From positions 1,368 through 65,367 of the forward strand of contig RFQR01000002.1 of the NCBI GenBank assembly GCA_009924895.1: a stretch of DNA of 64,000 nucleotides. The letters are read 5' to 3'. Both the position numbers and the translations under genes were made by a program. This document shows positions 2,072 through 27,392 of the stretch, in pieces; the first letter of the stretch is position 1, and each line of letters begins with the position of its first letter. The stretch is from a bacterium (GTDB taxonomy: Bacteria > Patescibacteriota > Minisyncoccia > Phycocordibacterales > UBA2100). The notes under the pieces were generated by a model. The model did no database searches. It had not been told where the DNA came from and was given only the letters and a program-made list of their open reading frames with translations.

Positions 2072-4291
2072 TTAGTGCTGGGGCCAGCTCGCAACCATAA
2101 GAACTTCACTTTCCTTTGTGGGCAGCTTTTGCCAGATAGTTTCGGTCACAAACGGCATGAATGGGTGCAGAGCTTTGACTGACATTATGAGGATTTCATT
2201 GAGTGCACGAGCACGTGAGTTTCGTACAACAACATCTTCGCCCTTGAGGATTGGCTTTGATGCTTCGATAATTTCAGAAGCAAAACGATCCCACACGTAG
2301 TGATACAGAGCGTCTGCGGCGAGGTCGAGTCGGAACTGATCCATGTTTTTGGAGACGGCAGCGATAACGAGTTGTGCCTCGGTGATGAGTGCGCTGTCTT
2401 CGGAGTTCATCTCCGCTTTGATATCTGCTCCTGCACAACTCTCAAGCACGAAACGCGTGATGTTCCAAAGTTTATTTGCAAAGTGTTTGTATCCACGTAC
2501 ACGGTCTTCTGAGAGTTTCAAATCATTTCCTGGTTGAGCACCAATGATGAGCGAGAGGCGGGTAGCGTCAGCGCCGTACTTTTTCACCATGTCGAGTGGG
2601 TCAATGATGTTGCCGAGCGATTTTGACATCTTGCGTCCCTGACCATCACGCACGAGTCCGTGGAGATAGACATCCCGAAACGGTACCTGACCGGTGAGAC
2701 ATCCCGACATGAGGATCATGCGTGCAACCCAAAAGAAAAGGATGTCGTATCCAGTTTCGAGGACGGAGGTGGGGTGGAAGCGTTTGAAGTCATCAGTATT
2801 GTCGGGCCAACCGAGCGTCGAGAAGGTCCAGAGGCCTGAAGAGAACCACGTATCGAGCGTGTCTGGGTCTTGTTCCCAGCCTTCGCCTGGTGAATCAACT
2901 TGTACACGTATTTCATCTCCCTTAAACCATGCAGGAATGCGGTGACCAAACCAAATCTGGCGTGAAATGCACCAGTCGCGCAAGTTATCAATCCAATGGT
3001 GATACACGCGCTCGAATCGCTCAGGAGCAATACGAATCTGTCGCGTTTCAACAACATGACGCATCATTGCCTTGAGTGTTGTTTTTGAGCCCGACGCGAT
3101 TCCTTCAATTTCAGAATGGGGAAGGGTGAACTCTTTGTTTACGGCAACAAACCACTGCTGCTTTATTTGTGGCTCGATAGTTCCACCACCACGACTGTTG
3201 GTCGCGATGTTGTGGACGTATGCTTCGTCTACTTTTACGACGAGTCCTTTTGCTTTGAGTTTTTCAACAATCACTGCGCGAGCCTTTTTGATATGTTGCC
3301 CTGCAAACTCACCGGCAATAGGGAGAAGAATGCCGCGCTCATCGATTACTTGCTCGACGTCGAGGTTGTGGCGCTGAGCAATTTCAAAGTCGATCATTGA
3401 GTGTGACGGGGTGATAGTCATTACGCCAGAACCCACTTCCATTTGTGCAGCCTCGTCTTTAATGACCGTTGCGCTGATTGGCCCGTTAATCCATTCGAGG
3501 TCAATTTTCTGTCCGTGTTTAAATTCCGCGTAGCGTGCATCGTCGGGGTGCATGACGACATACTTGTCGCCGAATTTTGTTTCGGGGCGGACGGTACCAA
3601 TAACAAATGGTCCGTATTGGAAATAATAGAACGGGTCTTTCTGCTCCACGTATTCAATCTCATCATCAGAAACAGTGGTCTGGAGTTTTGGGTCCCAGTT
3701 CACAATACGATTACCGCGATAAATAAGTCCGAGCTCGTACATACGCACAAACGCAGTCATGACTGCTTTGTAACGCGGTTCGTCGAGTGTGTAAGCATAG
3801 CGACTCCAATCGAGTGATGCACCCATAGCACGCACCTGGCTAATGATGGTGTTTTTACTTTCTTCTGCAAATGTGCTCACCCGCTTCAAAAGCTCTTCAC
3901 GGCCAAGGTCATAGCGGGTGAGTTTTTCTTTTTTATAAATCTCACCTTCAACTTTTGATTGCGTTGCAATTGCCGCTGAATCGGTGCCCGGTATCCAAAG
4001 CGTGCGCTTGCCTTGCATGCGTGCGTAGCGAACCAAGATGTCTTCGACGGCAAGCATTGCCGCATGACCCATGTGGAGTGTGCCGGTCACGTTTGGTGGA
4101 GGGAGCACAATTGTGTAGCCTTCAGCATTTGCCTTGGTAACACCTTTTTCGACACAGACATCAGGATTGGTAAAACCACTTTCGTTCCACAGTTTTATTG
4201 TAGCCCCCTCGGCTTCTTCGGGGTTGTAGGGCTTCATGAATGCTTCTGGAATACCGCGATTTTCCTTCCCGCCCGATATTTTTGTGGTCAT
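2072..4291 (-). CDS. valS: valine--tRNA ligase (short form, 739 aa, no C-terminal coiled coil)
   Basis: Class I aaRS HIGH motif in a ValRS-type context (PPPNVTGTLHMGHA). KMSKS present. Editing-domain-sized insertion. Confidence 0.9.
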   Translation of the reverse strand: MTTKISGGKENRGIPEAFMKPYNPEEAEGATIKLWNESGFTNPDVCVEKGVTKANAEGYTIVLPPPNVTGTLHMGHAAMLAVEDILVRYARMQGKRTLWIPGTDSAAIATQSKVEGEIYKKEKLTRYDLGREELLKRVSTFAEESKNTIISQVRAMGASLDWSRYAYTLDEPRYKAVMTAFVRMYELGLIYRGNRIVNWDPKLQTTVSDDEIEYVEQKDPFYYFQYGPFVIGTVRPETKFGDKYVVMHPDDARYAEFKHGQKIDLEWINGPISATVIKDEAAQMEVGSGVMTITPSHSMIDFEIAQRHNLDVEQVIDERGILLPIAGEFAGQHIKKARAVIVEKLKAKGLVVKVDEAYVHNIATNSRGGGTIEPQIKQQWFVAVNKEFTLPHSEIEGIASGSKTTLKAMMRHVVETRQIRIAPERFERVYHHWIDNLRDWCISRQIWFGHRIPAWFKGDEIRVQVDSPGEGWEQDPDTLDTWFSSGLWTFSTLGWPDNTDDFKRFHPTSVLETGYDILFFWVARMILMSGCLTGQVPFRDVYLHGLVRDGQGRKMSKSLGNIIDPLDMVKKYGADATRLSLIIGAQPGNDLKLSEDRVRGYKHFANKLWNITRFVLESCAGADIKAEMNSEDSALITEAQLVIAAVSKNMDQFRLDLAADALYHYVWDRFASEIIEASKPILKGEDVVVRNSRARALNEILIMSVKALHPFMPFVTETIWQKLPTKESEVLMVASWPQH

Positions 4292-4533
4292 AGTGGGTAC
4301 TGAGAGTATATCGAAAAGTTGGTCATTTGCGTAGTCGAGTCAGCGGCGAAAATATCGAGGTGGGGAGCCATATTTTTAGGATAGCACAGAGGGTTGGAGG
4401 AGGGGACTTGACAATATATTTTTATAATTTATACTAGAAGCAAGTTGGAACGTGCCTGGTCCACCCTATGAGACCAGGACGTATACAGGAGTAAATGGAG
4501 TCCAGCCTCCTCTCCTCTTGTAGGGTGGCACAT

Positions 4534-4567
4534 TATTGTGCCACCCTTTTGTTTTTTATAGTCTTGC
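4534..4567 (+). terminator. intrinsic terminator (hairpin gggtggcacattattgtgccaccc plus T-tract) on the + strand
   Basis: 10-bp GC-rich stem, 4-nt loop, followed by ttttgtttttt. Overlaps the tsaD stop codon on the opposite strand. Confidence 0.6.
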
Positions 4568-5742
4568 ATTCCCTTGTGCCACGATGCCCAAACCGCCTGT
4601 AGGCGGATTTTTTGTTGCTTGAAAATAGCCAGCGAGCGCAATCATGACCGCATTGTCGGTAGAGAGCCCTGGTGCAGGGAAAAGTACTGGTACTTTGGAC
4701 TCTTCAGTAAGTCGTGAGCGCAAGTATGAATTTGCAGCGACGCCGCCACCTACCAAGATGCATTGTGCTCCGTGCTCTTCTGTTGCACGTAGAGTTTTCG
4801 AAACGAGTACATCCACAATCGATTCTTCGGTTTCTCGTGCGATGTCTGCGCGCATTTCGTCAGAGAGCGGCTGGTGTTGCTCAATTAATTTTCGTGCGGC
4901 AGTTTTGAGACCAGAAAAAGAAAAGTCGTAATCACCTGAATCTTTCATGCCACGAGGTAGAGTGGTGTGTTTCGTTTTTCCGCGCGCGAGAGAAGCAAGT
5001 TTTGAAATCTCAATGCCACCAGGATAGGGTAAATCTAAAATGCGCGCGATTTTATCAAACGCTTCACCGGCAGCGTCATCGCGTGTCTCGCCGAGCATCT
5101 GATAGTCGTCAAAGTTTTTTACTAACTGCAACTCAGTGTGACCGCCAGAGACAAGAAGTGCGAGTGCGGGTATCTCGAATTCTTTCTTGATACTTGAAAC
5201 TTGATACTTGTTATTTTCGCCAACAACGGAGGCGACTATGTGTCCCTCCATGTGGTTTATTGGGACTAATGGAATCTGCCACGACATCGAAAGCGCTTTT
5301 GCAAAGTTGATACCCGGCCACAGTGCGGGTTCGAGCCCGGGGCCAAAGGTCACAGCGATTGTGTCAATATCTGGTTTTGCATGAGTCTGTAAAAATTGTG
5401 TTACCTGTGGCAGTAGTTCACTTTCGCGCTCTAAAACCCTCTCAATATCCTCCCAAGGGGTACCCTTGGTATTTACCAAGGGTACCCCTTGGTGTGGAGT
5501 GACCGGTATGAGTATGTGCGCTTCAGTCAGTGCTTGCACCAAAAGTGGCACCAAGTTTTTTTGGTGTTCTCGCTTAGCGAGGTTGGGGAAGACGCCACCG
5601 TAAGGCGCATGGAGTGCTGCTTGTGAAAACAAGGCGTTGCCTACAATGGTATAAGAAAAGTCGGTATTAAAATTTCCCGTGCACTCAAGTACACAAACCG
5701 CTGTTTCGTCGCAACTTGTCTCAATCCCCAGGATTCTCATAT
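4556..5742 (-). CDS. tsaD: tRNA N6-adenosine threonylcarbamoyltransferase TsaD (Kae1/Gcp family), ~395 aa with an internal insertion
   Basis: N-terminus MRILGIETSCDETAV at the internal start. The upstream extension in the ORF track is unlikely. Conserved Gcp core motifs. Contains an insertion that carries a palindrome. Confidence 0.85.
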
Positions 5743-21690: not shown

Positions 21691-21730
21691 GTAAAGCTAA
21701 AAACGAGCTTCCTCGTGCTAGCTGTTAGAT

Positions 21731-21830
21731 GCGGTGTATTATTAAAATAGCTCGAACTGAATTCAGCCCTCGCCGCGCAGAGCGCGGCTCGCAATGTGGG
21801 GGTGAAAAAATTCGGAGCGGCTCCGCCGCG
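21731..21830. repeat. left inverted repeat (IR-A) of the methyltransferase cassette
   Basis: gcggtgtattattaaaatagctcgaactgaattcagccctcgccgcgc is the exact reverse complement of 22687..22734. The match continues imperfectly for ~100 bp. Confidence 0.8.
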
Positions 21831-21865
21831 AAAATTAACAATTTCAAGTTTTTCTTTGGCGGCAA

Positions 21866-22546
21866 TTAAATGACTCTACTACCTTGATATTTTAATCTAA
21901 AAAATCCGCGTATGCCAAATAATGTGCGATATATGATAAAACCAATATTTTCCAAACGATTCAAAAAAGAATTTCTTTCCACTTTTTCAAAGTATGTAAT
22001 AGTATCAACCAAACGCGGATTTTTAATTCTAGATGATGTTAATAAAGGAATTGCTGTTGCTAAATTCGGACCGATAAAATGCCAAGAATCATGGAAGGCT
22101 AAAAATCCACCGTTCATTACTTTTGAAAACCATAAATTAAAGTCTAATTTAACAAAACTATATTCATGAGCACCATCAATAAAAGCAAATTCAATCTTTT
22201 GGTTAAAATTTTTCGCCGCATTTTCGGATGTATCTCTTACAGGCTCAACATATTCAGCTACTCCGGCCTTGTTTATATTTTGTTTAAATTCTTCAAATGT
22301 ATCAACTTTGCCGAACATTTTTTGATGTTCGGAGGAGCCGATGTGTGGATCAACGGCAAAAATTTTAACTTTATTCGCATCTCTAGAGCCGTTCCCAAGA
22401 CAAATAGTAGATTTTCCTTTCCACGAACCAACTTCTACGATTACATTTCCAGTTTTGATTTTCTTTGCAATGTTATACAAAGAAAGGCCCTCGGCCTCTG
22501 TCAACCACCCGCCAACATTTTCAGTAGCTTTATTAAAATCAAACAT
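21866..22546 (-). CDS. class I SAM-dependent methyltransferase (O-methyltransferase / Methyltransf_24-like)
   Basis: VIVEVGSWKGKST (GxGxG-like) and FAFIDGAHEY motifs. The gene is AT-rich relative to its neighbours. Confidence 0.7.
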   Translation of the reverse strand: MFDFNKATENVGGWLTEAEGLSLYNIAKKIKTGNVIVEVGSWKGKSTICLGNGSRDANKVKIFAVDPHIGSSEHQKMFGKVDTFEEFKQNINKAGVAEYVEPVRDTSENAAKNFNQKIEFAFIDGAHEYSFVKLDFNLWFSKVMNGGFLAFHDSWHFIGPNLATAIPLLTSSRIKNPRLVDTITYFEKVERNSFLNRLENIGFIIYRTLFGIRGFFRLKYQGSRVI

Positions 22547-22626
22547 ATGATTAAAAAATTTCTTTTGCCCTTAAAAAATATGATTCGAGCCGATTTGTTT
22601 TCAGGTTCTTTGGCAGTTTGGAATGT

Positions 22627-22734
22627 GCGCGGCGGAGCCGCTCATTTTTGCCTCGCCCGACCCGAGCCGCGCGAAGCGCGGCGAGGGCTGAATTCAGTTC
22701 GAGCTATTTTAATAATACACCGCCAGTTGGAATT
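22627..22734. repeat. right inverted repeat (IR-A') of the methyltransferase cassette
   Basis: Reverse complement of 21731..21830. Abuts IR-B directly. Confidence 0.8.
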
Positions 22735-22829
22735 TTTCAAGCAAGTGCCGTTCGCCTCGCGGCGGCTTTGCCGCCTCTCGGCAAGGATTTCAAATGGTTT
22801 TTTGGCCGAAAACGAAATGCATTTATCAA
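22733..22829. repeat. left inverted repeat (IR-B) upstream of the serine recombinase gene
   Basis: ccagttggaatttttcaagcaagtgccgttcgcctcgcggcggctttgccgcc... is the reverse complement of 24226..24332, with about four mismatches in ~100 bp. Confidence 0.85.
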
Positions 22830-22862
22830 TAAGGGCAAAAGAAATTTTTTAATCCTAATCTT

Positions 22863-24386
22863 ATGAAATACATACTTTATGCAAGAAAATCTACCGAGAG
22901 TGAGGAACGTCAAATTTTGAGTATTGAAGCCCAAATTTCCGAATTAAAAGAATTTGCCGCCAAAGAAAAACTTGAAATTGTTGCTTCGCTTTGCGAAGCC
23001 CAAACTGCCAAAGAACCTGGGCGAACGAAGTTCGCCGAAATGTTGTCATTTCTGCAAGCCGGAAAAGCTGACGGAATTTTGAGCTGGCATCCGGATCGTC
23101 TCGCCCGAAATTCCATAGACGGCGGACAAATTGTCTATTTGCTGGACACAGGAATAATTAAAGATTTGAAATTTCCGACATTTTGGTTTGACAATACACC
23201 GCAAGGAAAATTTATGTTGAACATTGCCTTTGGGCAAAGCAAATACTACATAGACAACTTGAGCGAGAATATTCGCCGAGGTCATCGCGCAAAACTTCGC
23301 AGGGGCGTATTCCCCGGCTTTGCTCCACTTGGCTATCTCAACAATCATCGCACTCGCGATATTGATATTGACCCAGAAAAATCTTCGCTAGTCCGAAAAG
23401 GTTTCGAGCTATACGCAACTGGCAAATACACCCTGAAGCAAATCGCGAGAGCGTTAAAAGATATTGGCCTCCGGAGTTACAAAGGCAATGTTCTTTCTGT
23501 TTCCTGTGCACAGAGACTTCTTCAAAATCATTTCTATTACGGAATTTTCAAATTTAAGGGCGAGACGTATCAGGGAATGCACGAGCCGTTAATTTCAAAG
23601 AAACTTTTTGATAAATGCCAAGAAGTTATGAAATCTCGCGGACATATCAAAACACGCAAAGCCGAGAAAACTTTTCCGTTTCGTGGATTATTCGCTTGCG
23701 GAGAGTGCGGCTGTGCTATTACTGCCGAAACTCAAAAGGGCCATAACTATTACAGATGTACGAAAAAGAAGACCGTTTGCTCGCAAAAATATGTCCGAGA
23801 GGAAGCACTGACCGAACAGGTGAAAAGTTTTCTTCAAAAAGTTTCTTTACCGAGCCAAGATGCTGAAAAGGTTTTGCGCGAGCTAGACAAAGACGAGCAG
23901 AAAGCAATAATGAGTAGCCGAGAAATTTTGCAAAATCTCAAAAGTGAAATTGTCGAAATCAGCACAAAGTTGGATAAATTGCTTTCTGCGTATCTCGACG
24001 AGATAGTTTCAGCCGATGAGTACGCCGCGCAAAAAGAGAAACTGCTCGCGCGAAAGGTCGAGTGTACTGAAGAAATCGGCGAAGTTGAGAACAAAAGTGT
24101 GTCTTGGCTCGAACCGGCTCGTGCGTTTGTAAAATCCTTAAATCAAGCTGAAAATCTTGTCCAGTCTGGGGATAAAGCAGAAATGACAACATTTCTAAAA
24201 CAAATCGGCTCGAATCATATTTTGTTTGATAAATGCATTTCGTTTTCGGCCAAAAAACCCTTTGAAATTCTTGCCGAGCGGCGGCAAAGCCGCCGCGAGG
24301 CGAACGGCACTTGCTTGAAAAATTCCAACTGGCGGAGAGGGAGGGATTCGAACCCTCGAGACAATTTTACTCGCCTAACACGTTAG
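22863..24386 (+). CDS. large serine recombinase (resolvase catalytic domain, recombinase domain, zinc ribbon, coiled coil)
   Basis: N-terminal YARKSTESEERQ...S...DRLAR catalytic motifs. Cys-rich ribbon CGECGC...YYRC. Coiled-coil C-terminus. The ORF runs into the adjacent tRNA-Ser, so the true stop may lie there. Confidence 0.85.
   Translation: MKYILYARKSTESEERQILSIEAQISELKEFAAKEKLEIVASLCEAQTAKEPGRTKFAEMLSFLQAGKADGILSWHPDRLARNSIDGGQIVYLLDTGIIKDLKFPTFWFDNTPQGKFMLNIAFGQSKYYIDNLSENIRRGHRAKLRRGVFPGFAPLGYLNNHRTRDIDIDPEKSSLVRKGFELYATGKYTLKQIARALKDIGLRSYKGNVLSVSCAQRLLQNHFYYGIFKFKGETYQGMHEPLISKKLFDKCQEVMKSRGHIKTRKAEKTFPFRGLFACGECGCAITAETQKGHNYYRCTKKKTVCSQKYVREEALTEQVKSFLQKVSLPSQDAEKVLRELDKDEQKAIMSSREILQNLKSEIVEISTKLDKLLSAYLDEIVSADEYAAQKEKLLARKVECTEEIGEVENKSVSWLEPARAFVKSLNQAENLVQSGDKAEMTTFLKQIGSNHILFDKCISFSAKKPFEILAERRQSRREANGTCLKNSNWRRGRDSNPRDNFTRLTR
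24226..24332. repeat. right inverted repeat (IR-B') inside the recombinase 3' coding region, ending at the CCA end of tRNA-Ser
   Basis: Reverse complement of 22733..22829. Its last 3 nt overlap the encoded CCA of tRNA-Ser. Confidence 0.85.
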
Positions 24387-24421
24387 CACCGTGCCGCCTT
24401 CGACCGCTCGGCCACCTCTCC
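24330..24421 (-). tRNA. tRNA-Ser (GCU), class II with long variable arm, CCA encoded
   Basis: Reverse complement ggagaggtggccgagcggtcgaaggcggcacggtGCTaacgtgt...gagggttcgaatccctccctctccgcca. Confidence 0.85.
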
Positions 24422-24563: not shown

Positions 24564-24591
24564 AAAATAGAACTTCGTCCAATGAAAGGAC

Positions 24592-24636
24592 GGAACGCAC
24601 GCTCGCATGGGGCGAGCGTGCGTTCCGCTCTTTCTT
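24592..24636 (+). terminator. intrinsic terminator (15-bp GC-rich hairpin ggaacgcacgctcgc-atgg-ggcgagcgtgcgttcc plus T-rich tail)
   Basis: Perfect hairpin 29 nt downstream of tRNA-Glu. Confidence 0.65.
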
Positions 24637-24654
24637 CCGAAGAAGTTTCTTTAT

Positions 24655-24916
24655 GTGAGGATATTCTAACCTTTGCGCGAACGTATTTTGAGCGAAGCGA
24701 GTGACTTCGCACGCGCCGCGCGCGTGGTGATGTGTACCTGATCGTACGCCCGGATTCCACACCAACGCTGGGCACCGCCCGCCGCGGCCAAGGCCGCGGC
24801 AACTCCGAACAAATCCGCTCCATGCATTTCGGATTCGCCACGAGAATGCATTTTGAAGAAGAAGGAATGGGCGGGTTTGTTCAGGGTTGTGCATTTCAGG
24901 CAGGGCGGCGCGCAAC
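24655..24916. repeat. left copy of a ~260-bp imperfect inverted repeat (IR-C)
   Basis: Reverse complement aligns with 26879..27152 over its whole length. Shared blocks include ggttagaatatcctcaca, cgaaatgcatggagcgg and gaacaaacccgccc. Confidence 0.8.
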
Positions 24917-24955
24917 AAATATCTATACTAATCGAATTGAAGTGTTTCCTGTGAA

Positions 24956-25417
24956 TTGTGGTACTATTTCTGTATGAATCCTAACGAGTGGAAGATTGTC
25001 GGTTGGATCGAGATATCAATGTTACTCGGGTCGTTTGTTCTCGGCGGGCTAATACTGGCTCCATTATTTTTTGCTTCCACCGATGGCGCCGACCAATACG
25101 CAAATGTACTAATTGGTTTCTCGGCTTCTTTTTTCGGTGGAGTGATAGATATCTTTCTCACTCTGGCTTGTGCATGGGTAGGCGTTTGGAGTGCTGCGCG
25201 ACGCAAACTTTTTTCTTATGAGACTAGCGCCGAGCGGGTCGCACTTTTCAGCGTCTTATTTTTCTGGATTCTTAGCGATGCAACGCATTTGATTTTTATC
25301 ATTTTTGCTCCGCTCGCAACAGTACTGCTGGTACTTGTACAATTAGCCGCGCTGTTTGTCGGCATCAAAATCTTGGTTCAACGCGCAATAGATATGTCAG
25401 GAAATTTGTTGAGATAA
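24956..25417 (+). CDS. hypothetical integral membrane protein (153 aa, ~4 TM)
   Basis: ORF track. Strongly hydrophobic segments. No family recognised. Confidence 0.45.
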   Translation: MWYYFCMNPNEWKIVGWIEISMLLGSFVLGGLILAPLFFASTDGADQYANVLIGFSASFFGGVIDIFLTLACAWVGVWSAARRKLFSYETSAERVALFSVLFFWILSDATHLIFIIFAPLATVLLVLVQLAALFVGIKILVQRAIDMSGNLLR

Positions 25418-25427
25418 ATTTTCATAT

Positions 25428-25814
25428 ATGACGTCGAGTGAAGTAAAGATCATGGCAATTATTTCGATCTTCCTTCTGATGGGCGACTTTCTAATATCTC
25501 ATCTTGAAGTTCTTGCATGGCCGGAAGCAAGAATCGCCGGTTTTCTTGTTCATTTTGCCTTTCTGATCGGATGTTCTTGGGTTGCAACGTTTACAGCTGC
25601 TCGATTTGGCCTGCTCGAACCGCATATTCGTACGCGAATGATATCAGCAACGAGTATTGCAGTGTTCCTCCTTATTCTTTTAATGAAACACGTACCGCAA
25701 GCCGCTGGTTTGTTCGTGCGAGCACCGCTGCTAATGTTGATCAATTTCTTGATTTTTAATGCGCCATTGTATTTTGCGCTTAATTATTTTCTTCAACGGG
25801 AGACAAATTCATAA
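25428..25814 (+). CDS. hypothetical integral membrane protein (128 aa, ~4 TM)
   Basis: ORF track. 10-nt gap to the upstream gene. Hydrophobic. Confidence 0.45.
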   Translation: MTSSEVKIMAIISIFLLMGDFLISHLEVLAWPEARIAGFLVHFAFLIGCSWVATFTAARFGLLEPHIRTRMISATSIAVFLLILLMKHVPQAAGLFVRAPLLMLINFLIFNAPLYFALNYFLQRETNS

Positions 25815-25978
25815 TCCGCATCTCAACGTTAAATTGAAGACAGATCGAAACACAGCTTGAACCTAAAAGGATTGCTCACTTGCAGCAGAAATGAACATAC
25901 GCGACGAGAAGAAGGTGACACCGACAAATATCGCCCAGAATAAGATTGTCCACAGAGGTGATGACTTTAGGCCGGAAA

Positions 25979-26245
25979 TCAATTGCGGCACATCGGATGC
26001 AAAGACGCACACGACCACGAAATACGAGCACCGATAACAATCGACGCTATTCCGCCGAAGATTACAGTCACCACCGCAAAAGCCTCTACCAATGGTGGGA
26101 CGCGGGAAGCTCCGTTTGTGACCAATAGAACCCCTATCGCCAATCCCAAAACTATGGAGGCAAGATACAGGGCGAGCTGCATAAGAAAAATGCCACCCGC
26201 CACACTAAGAATGACATATGAGGGGCGCGTTGAATGCATGCACAT
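25979..26245 (-). CDS. hypothetical small membrane protein (88 aa, 2-3 TM)
   Basis: ORF track. Hydrophobic. Convergent with the two + strand membrane genes. Confidence 0.35.
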   Translation of the reverse strand: MCMHSTRPSYVILSVAGGIFLMQLALYLASIVLGLAIGVLLVTNGASRVPPLVEAFAVVTVIFGGIASIVIGARISWSCASLHPMCRN

Positions 26246-26286
26246 TACTGTACCATGTATTTGGCTGCGGCGATGATGCAGGAGTA

Positions 26287-26800
26287 AATAAAGAATCTTG
26301 TTGCGACTATAGGGATATGTATTTCGCGCCTCGTCCTATGCCATTCTTTCCCAATTTGCCCTGTTTGACGAGAGCGGCAGTATAGCGACTCGCTGTCGCG
26401 TCCGGGACATGCAGCAGCTTTTCAATTTCGTCATTTGTGATCGATTTGTGTTGCCTCACAAACTCCACAATTCTTGCGAGCTACACTTCTTTATTCCGCG
26501 TCTTTGTCGCAGCCGACTTCGCTCTATCGTTAGCACTCCATTTACGTCCAACTGGTGCTAAAGGTTGTGGTGTCGATATCGATTGCGACATTGACTGTGA
26601 ATCCACCGGTATTTCTTGAGCCGATGGTGATTCTTATGGAATGACGGGCGGCGGTTCTGTAGACGCTGATTGTTCGGCAACAGGAACATATACAGGCGCA
26701 GGCGGAATCGGTTCAGCAAGTGCTGGTGCGGCTGCTTCAAACACAGGCGCAGATTCAGTCGGAGTTGGCGTGTCTTGCACAACATAATCCGTCATTCCCT
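26287..26800 (-). pseudogene. decayed gene: Pro/Ala-rich N-terminal region plus C-terminal winged-helix-like DNA-binding segment, interrupted by a TAA, a frameshift and a TAG
   Basis: Three consecutive minus-strand frames read MTDYVVQDTPTPTESAPVFEAAAPALAEPIPPAPVYVPV..VIP*, then ..RKWSANDRAKSAATKTRNKEV*, then LARIVEFVRQHKSITNDEIEKLLHVPDATASRYTAALVKQGKLGKNGIGRGAKYISL*. Confidence 0.35.
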
Positions 26801-26878
26801 TAATCTATCAAAATCGGCTCACATTGAATGTCGAAACGGCTTATCCATATATATACGTTTGAGCCGTTTCGTCCTTTT

Positions 26879-27152
26879 GGATTTGTATGCGCCGTCCATG
26901 CCTGAAAGGCAGAACCCCGAACAAACCCGCCCATTCCTTCTTTTTCAAAATGCATTCTCGAGGCGAATCCGAAATGCATGGAGCGGGTTTGTTCGGAGTT
27001 GCCGCGGTACTCCGCGGCGGGCGGTTTGGCAGGATTGGCACGAACTCGGAGCGTACGCTTCGCGTCCGCAATTCCACGCACGCGGCGCGTGCGGAGTCAG
27101 TCGCTTCGCTCGAAATACGTTCGCGCGAAGGTTAGAATATCCTCACAAAGGC
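26879..27152. repeat. right copy of the ~260-bp imperfect inverted repeat (IR-C')
   Basis: Reverse complement of 24655..24916. Confidence 0.8.
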
Positions 27153-27183
27153 AAAAACTCTGCACTGCTGCGGAGTTTTTTGC
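27146..27183 (+). terminator. terminator-like hairpin (aaaaactctgcactgctgcggagtttttt), copy 1 of a 33-bp direct repeat
   Basis: A-tract, 7-bp stem (ctctgca.../...tgcggag with one G·U pair), T-tract. Repeated at 27358..27392. Confidence 0.5.
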
Positions 27184-27357
27184 ACTTTGTGAAGACGGAG
27201 CCATGTTTCGCTAGCAAGCGAAACGGGCGAGTCCGGGGCTGGAAAATTTTTGTTTGACAAACAAAAATTATTGTGGCTCACATCAAAAATAGGATCAAGA
27301 GGAGAAAAGTTTTGTCGAAAACTTTTCGAGCTCTTGGGAGGATCCTGGTAGTATCAC

Positions 27358-27392
27358 AAAGGCAAAAACTCTGCACTGCCGCGGAGTTTGTG
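27358..27392 (+). repeat. second copy of the cacaaaggcaaaaactctgcactgcYgcggagttt direct repeat (hairpin, weaker T-tract)
   Basis: Matches 27148..27180 at 32 of 33 positions. Confidence 0.5.

Follow-up and report, generated by a model that had tools for sequence, protein, structure and literature searches.

What kind of element occupies the 3' end of a tRNA-Ser(GCU) gene on contig RFQR01000002.1 (GCA_009924895.1), where a methyltransferase gene and a large serine recombinase (LSR) gene are each enclosed between inverted repeats of about 100 bp? We analysed 64,000 nt of this contig, hereafter called the window, and all coordinates below are window positions. An earlier interpretation made from the letters alone (the sequence-only reading) had described two concatenated cassettes, and offered either two insertions resembling miniature inverted-repeat transposable elements (MITEs) or foldback elements, or an invertible or mobilisable module borne by the recombinase. 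Comparison of the locus with its relatives indicated that positions 21731-24335 very probably form a single integrated LSR element of 2.6 kb with three attachment (att) sites, namely attR, an internal inverted attP, and attL at the tRNA-Ser(GCU) 3' end. The LSR is its only mobility enzyme, and we regard it as a bipartite integrative element of Patescibacteria. The comparison used 160 loci of the family (given as L numbers where needed), of which 80 were retrieved from GTDB species representatives and 80 from JGI metagenomes.

The repeats, the genes, the low GC content of the methyltransferase gene, the GC hairpins and the tRNA-Ser reported before were all found again with small corrections. 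The inverted repeat IR-B (22720-22829) is the reverse complement of IR-B' (24226-24335) over 110 nt with 3 mismatches (97%). This repeat had been recognised rightly, but it starts at 22720 and not at 22733, and the overlap between IR-A' and IR-B, which does exist, comprises 4 nt (CCGC, 22720-22723) and not 2. Likewise, IR-B' lies at the tRNA end as described, but its end is at 24335, covering the last 6 nt (CCGCCA) of tRNA-Ser(gct). IR-A and IR-A' could be aligned without gaps over 61 nt (21731-21791 versus 22663-22723, 95%, with a perfect core of 44-48 nt), had an additional exact match of 16 nt (21815-21830 versus 22628-22643), and gave a gapped alignment of about 105 nt at about 85% identity (21731-21836 versus 22622-22723). 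A GC hairpin was present in every arm. Searches with both arm cores, allowing 3 mismatches, and a self-comparison found no copies in the 64-kb window beyond each local pair, where 0 chance matches were expected; the suspicion that the repeats might be multicopy was thus not borne out there. No Rfam family matched the arms or the smaller repeated pieces described below, the only hits being two tRNAs.

The nature of the element was revealed by three junctions, S1 (21731), S2 (22720) and S3 (24335). Read on the strand bearing CCGC, these are TAATAATACA-CCGC-ATCTAACAGC, TAATAATACA-CCGC-CAGTTGGAAT and CCCTCCCTCT-CCGC-CAGTTGGAAT, respectively. The junctions were compared in the window and 50 other loci. 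In these 51 loci, the left half of S2 equalled that of S1 and the right half of S2 equalled that of S3, while the remaining half of S3 was a tRNA 3' end in all and the remaining half of S1 was unrelated host DNA. Such a pattern of half-sites is the signature of a conservative exchange between attP and attB, and the assignment of S1, S2 and S3 as putative attR (P-O-B'), attP (P-O-P') and attL (B-O-P') is well supported by it. Judged from its half-sites, S2 is a complete attP retained within the integrated element and inverted relative to S1 and S3. The predicted attR core is located at 21731-21734 with CCGC on the minus strand (putative crossover CC at 21733-21734) and is preceded on its left by the host flank B' (21700-21730). 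The internal attP (P-CC-P') spans 22690-22760 on the plus strand with its crossover CC at 22720-22721, and the tRNA-Ser(gct) gene (24330-24421, minus strand) supplies the B half of attL with the crossover CC at 24334-24335.

The four arms can accordingly be named by their roles in these sites. By the same junction comparison, IR-A and IR-A' would both be P arms, belonging to attR and the internal attP, respectively, and IR-B and IR-B' would both be P' arms, belonging to the internal attP and attL, respectively. The R arm (IR-A, 21731-21836, plus strand), identified by repeat comparison as a P-type arm, shows from outside inward a half-site with GCTCGAAC, the GC hairpin and, at 21825-21813 on the minus strand, a terminator-like hairpin with a T run after it. 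The R' arm (IR-A', 22622-22723, plus) serves as the P half of the internal attP, and the A arm (IR-B, 22720-22829, plus) as its P' half, the latter repeating the recombinase tail region in inverted, non-coding form. The A' arm (IR-B', 24226-24335, plus) is the P' half of attL and encodes the recombinase tail. As a consequence of the second, inverted attP inside the element, the recombinase gene stands between two P' arms and the single-gene cargo between two P arms.

The position of the exchange could be narrowed by the loci with the shortest overlaps of identity, which were GC (L082), CCG (L044), GCA (L126) and CAC (L150). They confine the exchange to the first two bases in common, corresponding to tRNA positions 71-72 (CC in the window). 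The half-site comparison in the 51 loci, with overlaps as short as 2-3 nt, pointed to the exchange of attP and attB at a 2-bp core expected of an LSR. The sites attL and attR have 4-7 nt in common, and no direct duplication flanks the arms. The expectation of flanking direct repeats at tRNA 3' ends, raised in the sequence-only reading, is appropriate for islands of tyrosine integrases but not for LSR products, which have in common only the 2-bp crossover and the mimicry by attP. Orientation-blind recombination through a palindromic core, conceivable as CCGC contains CG/GC, was rejected because the overlaps across loci place the exchange on the first two nucleotides, CC in the window. Further LSR crossovers at the inner ends of the arms (P1|A' and P1'|F2', pieces described below) were also rejected, as the spacing is 1 nt off, the partners have different flanking dinucleotides, and the inner ends are unconserved as DNA. 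P1 does resemble a T-arm half-site, and was kept as a resemblance only.

The arms appear to reach tRNA genes by imitation. In the window, the end of the R' arm, ...TAATAATACACCGC(CA), mimics the tRNA 3' end, and R' arms across loci end in a similarly tRNA-like manner (..ACACCGCCA or ..CTGCACCA). A TTCGA motif like that of the T-arm is separated from the arm start by 17 nt in the tRNA (48 of 58 loci) and by 22 nt in the R' arm (30 loci including the window); in the window, TTCGAG of the R' arm is 5 bp farther from the crossover than TTCGAA of the tRNA. The half-site motif of an LSR attP is reportedly shifted 5 bp outward relative to that of attB, a point credited to Rutherford and Van Duyne in 2013. 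The terminal nucleotides of the A' arm restore the discriminator and CCA of tRNA-Ser. We also observed that the host flanks at attR of many loci (e.g. L017, L046 and L048; 21724-21734 in the window) suggest native target tRNA genes without a full encoded CCA. The A arm gives the target tRNA its discriminator and CCA, so that insertion alters the 3' end of the tRNA gene.

The recombinase open reading frame (ORF) at 22863-24386 on the plus strand encodes 507 aa with Resolvase, Recombinase and Zn_ribbon_recom domains. Pfam assigned PF00239 (Resolvase) to aa 4-148 with an E-value of 2e-19, PF07508 to aa 171-259, and PF13408 to aa 272-324, and all homologues listed retain the nucleophile Ser10 in the YARKST motif. 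The integrases of A118 (4kis, over aa 213-375) and SPbeta were matched only distantly; the best PDB E-value, for the DNA-binding part, was 4e-6. A phage origin was considered and rejected, as IMG/VR gave one distant match only. The protein consists of a core conserved in the family (aa 1-454), a tail from the A' arm (aa 455-491), and a last portion of 17 aa produced by read-through, the ORF passing through IR-B' and 55 nt into the antisense strand of tRNA-Ser. The frame of the tail remained open for 24 codons past residue 454 in 67 of 68 loci, compared with 26 and 15 for the other two frames. The earlier statement that C-terminal codons of the recombinase form one arm of the repeat is correct. 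The open frame encoded by A' appears to be selected, with little conservation at the protein level according to codon-position entropy. The explanation of the tail as accidental read-through was rejected for the at least 24 codons encoded by A', given this open frame, and was retained for the stretch past the crossover.

About 8000 close homologues were found for the recombinase core (aa 1-455), and the retrieved loci belonged nearly all to Patescibacteria. The tRNA gene was always convergent with the recombinase gene and located 73-115 nt past residue 454. About 12 kinds of tRNA were targeted (Ser, Leu, Gln, Ala, Trp, Arg, Val, Tyr, Ile, Lys, Asn and Gly). In almost every locus the ORF continued about 25-40 codons past residue 454 and then entered the antisense strand of the tRNA 3' end (...W-RRGRDSNP...). 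Of 100 testable loci, 96 had the inverted copy of the A arm at a distance of 30-170 nt before the start codon, with a median identity of 100%, and 84 of 104 had a fused inverted P1'-F2' at a distance of 170-340 nt. The complete order, R - F1' - cargo' - P2' - P1' - F2' - R' | A - P2 - rec(F1 h F2 ... P1) - A' - tRNA', was seen in 8 divergent loci and L089. The architecture was kept in most of the 160 loci, the recombinases of which are only 56-65% identical. L078 showed a simple form with R at one end, A' at the other and no internal site. The two modules of the sequence-only reading were therefore not upheld as concatenated cassettes, as their boundary at 22720 is a complete attP composed of one arm from each pair, and L078 ends in R and A'. 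The architecture also explains the variable annotated lengths of the recombinases (464-608 aa), their overlaps with tRNA genes, and contig breaks in the candidate phyla radiation (CPR). Metagenome contigs (e.g. L097, L099, L121 and L163) very often ended about 90-230 nt past residue 454, inside the A' arm or the tRNA. Homologues truncated at the N-terminus were examined as possible rearrangement products and discarded, as P0078 is merely interrupted by IS110. In one lineage, an IS110-family insertion splits the recombinase gene (L085, ERZ4903125 contig, 2317-5329), which explains homologues lacking the Resolvase domain.

The variable slot of the window element holds a class I S-adenosylmethionine (SAM) methyltransferase gene (Methyltransf_24 in Pfam, 226 aa, 21866-22546, minus strand). 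Its GC content was 31-37%, versus about 48-50% in the flanks. When the locus was compared with L005 and L007, whose recombinases are about 80% identical, everything aligned except the cargo gene. The low GC content fits a swappable cargo, and the foreign origin proposed for this gene from its composition agrees with its being the sole region not homologous to L005 and L007. The cargo at other loci included a C5 DNA methylase, an HD protein (hydrolase), NAD(P)HX dehydratase and other SAM methyltransferases, as well as DUF218, a bacterial PH domain, several surface or secreted proteins with an N-terminal membrane anchor, and unknowns.

Signals for expression of the cargo were recognised around the slot. 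A match to a sigma70-like promoter crosses the internal attP on the minus strand (22712-22740; TTGAAA, a 17-nt spacer and TATTAT, 10/12), having its -35 in the A arm and its -10 in the R' arm and being directed at the leader F2-P1-P2 and the methyltransferase gene. A -35/-10 pair was found at the equivalent position in about 27 of 47 loci. Both R arms have an outward-facing terminator-like hairpin at the inner end (21825-21813 on the minus strand and 22629-22641 on the plus strand), and the former comes directly after the methyltransferase gene and F1'. The cargo module thus looks like a full expression unit, with the putative promoter existing only where the P' arm meets the P arm.

A sensitive self-comparison detected five further exact inverted matches within the locus, four of them linking both modules. 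F1' (21837-21865, minus) is the reverse complement of 22954-22982 and abuts the stop codon of the methyltransferase gene; P2' (22549-22573, minus) is that of 22830-22854, P1' (22575-22601, minus) that of 24197-24223, and F2' (22602-22621, minus) that of 23000-23019. These matches indicate that the flanks of the methyltransferase gene are built from pieces of the recombinase gene. On the minus strand, three such pieces, F2-P1-t-P2, form the 5' leader of the cargo (22549-22621); reading from 22601 to 22546, ...KQIGSNHIF-stop is followed by a 25-nt leader identical to that of the recombinase gene and then by the ATG of the methyltransferase. On the side of the recombinase, P2 (22830-22854, plus) is the leader piece common to both genes, the segment 22954-23019 on the plus strand consists of F1 (22954-22982), hairpin h (22983-22999) and F2 (23000-23019) inside codons 31-52, and P1 (24197-24223, plus; ATCGGCTCGAAT) is the conserved last 27 nt of the core with a motif like T-arm and R-arm. 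In the fifth match, Q (23037-23055, plus) pairs exactly over 19 nt with its inverted partner Q' (24177-24195). Both are small hairpins (GAAATG-nnnn-CATTTC), Q lies 17 nt past F2 and Q' 1 nt before P1, and the pair occurred in only some relatives. The 5' region of the recombinase gene is rich in small hairpins, such as GGCGAAC-GAA-GTTCGCC immediately 3' of F2 (23020-23036).

Synonymous variation in the ORF was lowest in F1, F2 and P1. Hairpin h, which fills the 17 nt between F1 and F2 with 7 bp, was paired in 97% of the cells with 84 double-sided changes; its covariation score was reached by 0 of 500 shuffles and shifted registers scored far lower. The aligned sequences thus show hairpin h to be maintained by covariation, and mark F1-h-F2 as a cis element acting at the nucleotide level. 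Each module is equivalent to an opened circle. That of the recombinase reads P2 N F1 h F2 body P1 and is interrupted by the A arms at P1|P2; that of the cargo reads P2 cargo F1. F2 P1 t and is interrupted by the R arms at F1|F2. The permuted second set of pieces around the cargo (F1' and P2'-P1'-F2') is conserved, being kept by every element, and belongs to the design. Candidate roles are control of the recombinase by sense and antisense RNA, accessory binding sites (the P1 core GGCTCGAAC being like T-arm and R-arm), and homology flanks for the exchange of cassettes; as to origin, the set is a candidate relic of a permuted twin copy.

Arms within one locus were typically 98-100% identical, unlike those of different loci; identity of the window arms to the arms of L005 and L007 was 75-86%. 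Identity within loci and divergence between loci indicate that the arms evolve in concert, and gene conversion between close inverted repeats of 100 bp would be the simplest cause.

Orientation variants were found among the relatives. The cargo module of L035 is flipped between identical arms of 117 nt. In L065 and L140 the recombinase module is flipped, so that the tRNA is upstream of the recombinase gene and the tail reads into the R arm. Among the 51 closest homologues, about 33 tails entered the tRNA and about 8-11 entered the R arm (...W-RCxLxxVRxYFExNP-stop), noting that tandem arrays would yield the same R-arm tail as flipped modules. The suggestion of a recombinase-borne invertible or mobilisable module came close to this evidence, which describes a mobilisable LSR element with flipped forms in the genomes of L035, L065 and L140. 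L053 and L020 contained two cassettes or "closed" units of F1-hairpin-F2-P1-t-P2. The closure in L053 can be explained by deletion between the GC hairpins of the arms, as these hairpins, being palindromic, serve as both direct and inverted repeats. In L058 (JAUSGE010000001.1, about -215 to +1610 from the recombinase start), the recombinase module stood alone, flanked by tRNA-Ala(cgc) on one side and by a tRNA 3' fragment and tRNA-Ala(tgc) on the other, with both A arms joined to tRNA ends. This arrangement suggests the product expected from the internal attP and a second tRNA gene, namely a chromosomal inversion. A further variant was a twin element without an intact tRNA after it, observed in one organism (P0017) from many samples (L089-L096, +1500 to +5500). 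It was followed instead by a methyltransferase gene, a rolling-circle initiator gene like REP_ORF2-G2P, and a second large serine recombinase gene, that is, by elements stacked at one site. Amplification by a dumbbell, rolling-hairpin or 2-micron-like process was considered and rejected, as the element has no replication gene and the 160 loci contained no circular contigs; the Rep gene of L089 belongs to the neighbouring element.

The following course of events was derived from these observations, with the integration chemistry taken from the LSR family and the site logic from the comparison. A circular form would present attP (R' arm - CC - A arm) to attB at the tRNA-Ser 3' end, with the crossover at tRNA positions 71-72, and would yield attL (tRNA-CC-A, 24335) and attR (R'-CC-host flank, 21731). 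The R' arm would act as a mimic of the tRNA 3' half, and the A arm would resupply the discriminator and CCA. The predicted empty site is tRNA-Ser ...CTCTCC followed by GCATCTAACAGCTAGC. The promoter formed across the internal attP would drive the cargo cassette, which would end at the terminator of the outer R arm. Either module may be inverted by recombination between the arms of about 100 bp, most simply in a RecA-dependent manner and alternatively by the LSR; RecA-dependent recombination would also keep the arms identical by gene conversion, and a flip of the cargo module would turn the cargo off. Two inverted attPs would divide a free circle into two unique arcs, giving two isomers and four integration products, three classes of which were seen. 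The two isomers would explain the orientation variants in other genomes. The complete account including promoter-driven cargo, flipping and gene conversion is favoured with reserve.

Several observations weigh against this account. No empty attB of the window locus was recovered, and no convincing circular contig was found among the 160 loci. L012 had a terminal overlap of 51 nt, but its second attP contains an N gap and its inverted-repeat graph is ambiguous. In a second subfamily (24 loci), the motif is duplicated and the offset of +5 bp ambiguous. The promoter is a consensus match only and is weak in one subfamily, and its motifs coincide with possible binding sites of the recombinase. Canonical LSRs perform only attP × attB without a directionality factor, and excision requires a separate recombination directionality factor (RDF). 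No candidate for an RDF-like gene was present in the 2.6-kb element, where the methyltransferase gene was the only other ORF, and neither excision nor a flip by the LSR (attP × attL or attR) has a known basis here. With regard to inversion, all three assemblies carrying the window locus had one orientation only, and the strong predominance of one orientation among the loci is unaccounted for, as is the reason for the duplicates of F1, F2, P1 and P2.

The two modules might instead be independent units like insertion sequences (IS), an autonomous A - recombinase - A' and a non-autonomous R - methyltransferase - R', each moved by the recombinase in the role of a serine transposase, through circles with palindromic joints (A'|A and R'|R) that could fuse. 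Each module is indeed bounded by its own inverted repeats, and the two correspond to circles opened at different points, P1|P2 and F1|F2; the cargo cassettes of L053 and L020 separated by "closed" hairpin units and the solitary recombinase module of L058 between two tRNA ends would also suit such units. However, the 51 loci follow P-O-B', P-O-P' and B-O-P' exactly, as one event of attP × attB gives, with tRNAs joined to A arms only and host flanks to R arms only, and the modules co-occur in fixed order in more than 80% of the loci. L078, with R and A' ends and no internal site, is likewise not as expected from two units, and the crossover CC of the window is non-palindromic, so that palindromic joints would be mismatched. 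Moreover, we know of no LSR reaction between two P-type sites, and this explanation was judged unlikely. The MITE-like or foldback insertions proposed from sequence were not supported either. The arms are single-copy in the window, bracket genes, include one coding arm, have no flanking duplication, and occupy fixed positions in about 160 loci in accordance with one attP × attB logic. An ordinary LSR element that once acquired an inverted duplication of its att region, with functionless repeats kept by gene conversion and accidental variants, would account for the identity of arms within a locus; a simple form without the internal site does exist (L078), and no activity has been demonstrated. 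This is improbable in view of an architecture kept in most of the 160 loci despite recombinase identities of only 56-65%, of F1, F2 and P1 being the most constrained nucleotides of the ORF and kept in both copies, and of a promoter-like site and terminators placed to make the cargo an expression unit. The internal attP has also stayed intact, although deletions between GC hairpins can remove it (L053).

Inverted repeats bracketing single genes, a promoter outside the invertible cargo segment and the existence of flipped isomers could be taken as signs of a DNA invertase, that is, a phase-variation switch for the methyltransferase gene, the recombinase gene or both, with the tRNA as a mere neighbour. 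The occupation of 3' ends of about 12 tRNA species and the joining of arms to unrelated host flanks demonstrate mobility, and one orientation strongly dominates. The protein has at least 454 aa with LSR domains and the integrase architecture, and the arms are about 100 bp long, unlike the small Hin/Gin type (about 190 aa with a helix-turn-helix (HTH) and sites of about 26 bp), which makes a dedicated switch very unlikely. An assembly artefact, in which a chimeric join or a fold-back in the de Bruijn graph produced the repeats, also deserves mention, as the contig came from a MEGAHIT-type metagenome assembly and related contigs often end in the A' arm. The contig of L003 (957 nt), from the independent assembly of another run (Logan SRR8075959), terminates symmetrically within IR-A, and it reproduces 21749-22705 exactly. 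More than 100 independent assemblies, made with different assemblers in different projects, contained the anatomy, mostly well inside long contigs. Independent assemblies thus reproduce the repeats, answering the concern raised in the sequence-only reading, and the probability of an artefact is negligible. A more far-reaching and rather doubtful option is that the loci represent a distinct element class, a recombinase-plus-cassette platform in which the inverted attP and the permuted pieces constitute a built-in machine for rearrangement and regulation. The data would fit an RDF-independent flip-flop by the LSR with phase-varying cargo and antisense RNA to four places of the recombinase mRNA, a recombinase C-terminus depending on the state (tRNA when integrated, R arm when circular or flipped) that sets directionality, or an integron-like cassette exchange based on a serine recombinase.

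The integrated LSR element favoured here shares with phage LSRs (Bxb1, phiC31, A118/LI and SPbeta SprA/YokA) the same set of domains, attL and attR products, short att sites with a putative 2-bp crossover, the lack of long direct repeats, and the +5 bp motif of attP. It differs from them in its only distant sequence relation, its targeting of many tRNA 3' ends through a mimicking arm, a gene crossing attL into the target, the retained inverted attP, the paired arms of about 100 bp, and a size of only 2-3 kb (recombinase and one cargo gene) without a gene for a directionality factor. Tn4451/Tn4453 (TnpX), Tn5397 (TndX) and IS607 also have a serine recombinase as the sole mobility protein, and a small circular intermediate is expected as well. 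Closure of the Tn4451 circle creates a promoter at the joint, and this resembles the promoter-like site across attP. Unlike the present element, these have low target specificity (a GA dinucleotide or none), no long inverted arms, ends that are not tRNA mimics, and no internal copy of the joint. The inversion systems Hin/Gin/Cin, Min of p15B and shufflons likewise have genes bracketed by inverted repeats and a fixed promoter outside the invertible segment. The enhancer of hin and gin lies within the 5' part of the recombinase gene, a position resembling that of F1-h-F2 (codons 31-52). These systems differ in using small serine or tyrosine invertases, 26-bp sites and Fis, and in not being mobile through their sites, whereas the repeats here are att arms of an integrating element for which inversion is predicted.

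The yeast 2-micron plasmid (FLP) similarly has two inverted sites, two arcs and two isomers, as predicted for the circle of the present element; it differs in being a replicating eukaryotic plasmid with a tyrosine recombinase, while here no replication function and no circle were observed. Integrons similarly possess a promoter-less variable slot for one gene with conserved boundaries, and some relatives of our element have tandem cassettes with a conserved spacer that holds a hairpin of conserved structure. However, no gene for IntI and no attC or attI were found here, arrays are rare, and the spacer consists of recombinase-gene pieces. Islands of tyrosine integrases are distinguished by a tyrosine recombinase, absent here, and by a direct repeat of 15-50 nt of the tRNA 3' segment at the far end, compared with 4-7 nt common to attL and attR here. 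Tycheposons are likewise small cargo elements stacked at tRNA 3' ends in streamlined genomes. They mostly have tyrosine recombinases and direct partial-tRNA repeats, with a minority having an LSR, and the text searched contained no internal inverted attP or arm duplication (bioRxiv 10.1101/2020.12.28.424599). We found no description of the present architecture in the searchable literature, the coverage of which is incomplete.

A family with thousands of copies thus delivers single accessory genes at many tRNA genes. Patescibacteria/CPR have tiny genomes with few recognised mobile elements, and the family may be a principal channel for gene flux there, possibly also for phase variation. Its members are natural LSRs with attB at tRNA 3' ends recognised via a mimicking attP arm, and those tuned to different tRNAs and crossover dinucleotides offer a ready-made panel of orthogonal integrases. 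They also bear on the question of directionality, as there is no RDF gene, attP stands beside attL and attR, and the C-terminus of the recombinase changes with the state of recombination. If the platform option were true, the internal attP would enable these elements to cause chromosomal inversions from one tRNA gene to another in CPR genomes, as suggested by L058.

Another structure was noticed downstream of the neighbouring tRNA-Glu(ttc), in the region 24564-27389. A third pair of inverted repeats (24654-24911 and 26889-27147; 261 nt, 85%) encloses about 2 kb with small membrane ORFs and an HTH-like ORF of 53 aa. A 36-nt direct repeat with a terminator-like hairpin occurs at 27143-27178 and 27354-27389. 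The sequence TCCTGGTAGTATCACAAA at 27343-27360 repeats the 3' end of tRNA-Glu, TCCCGGTAGGGTCACAAA, in 15 of 18 positions. The region 24564-27389 has the appearance of a second island, one without an integrase, at the neighbouring tRNA gene.

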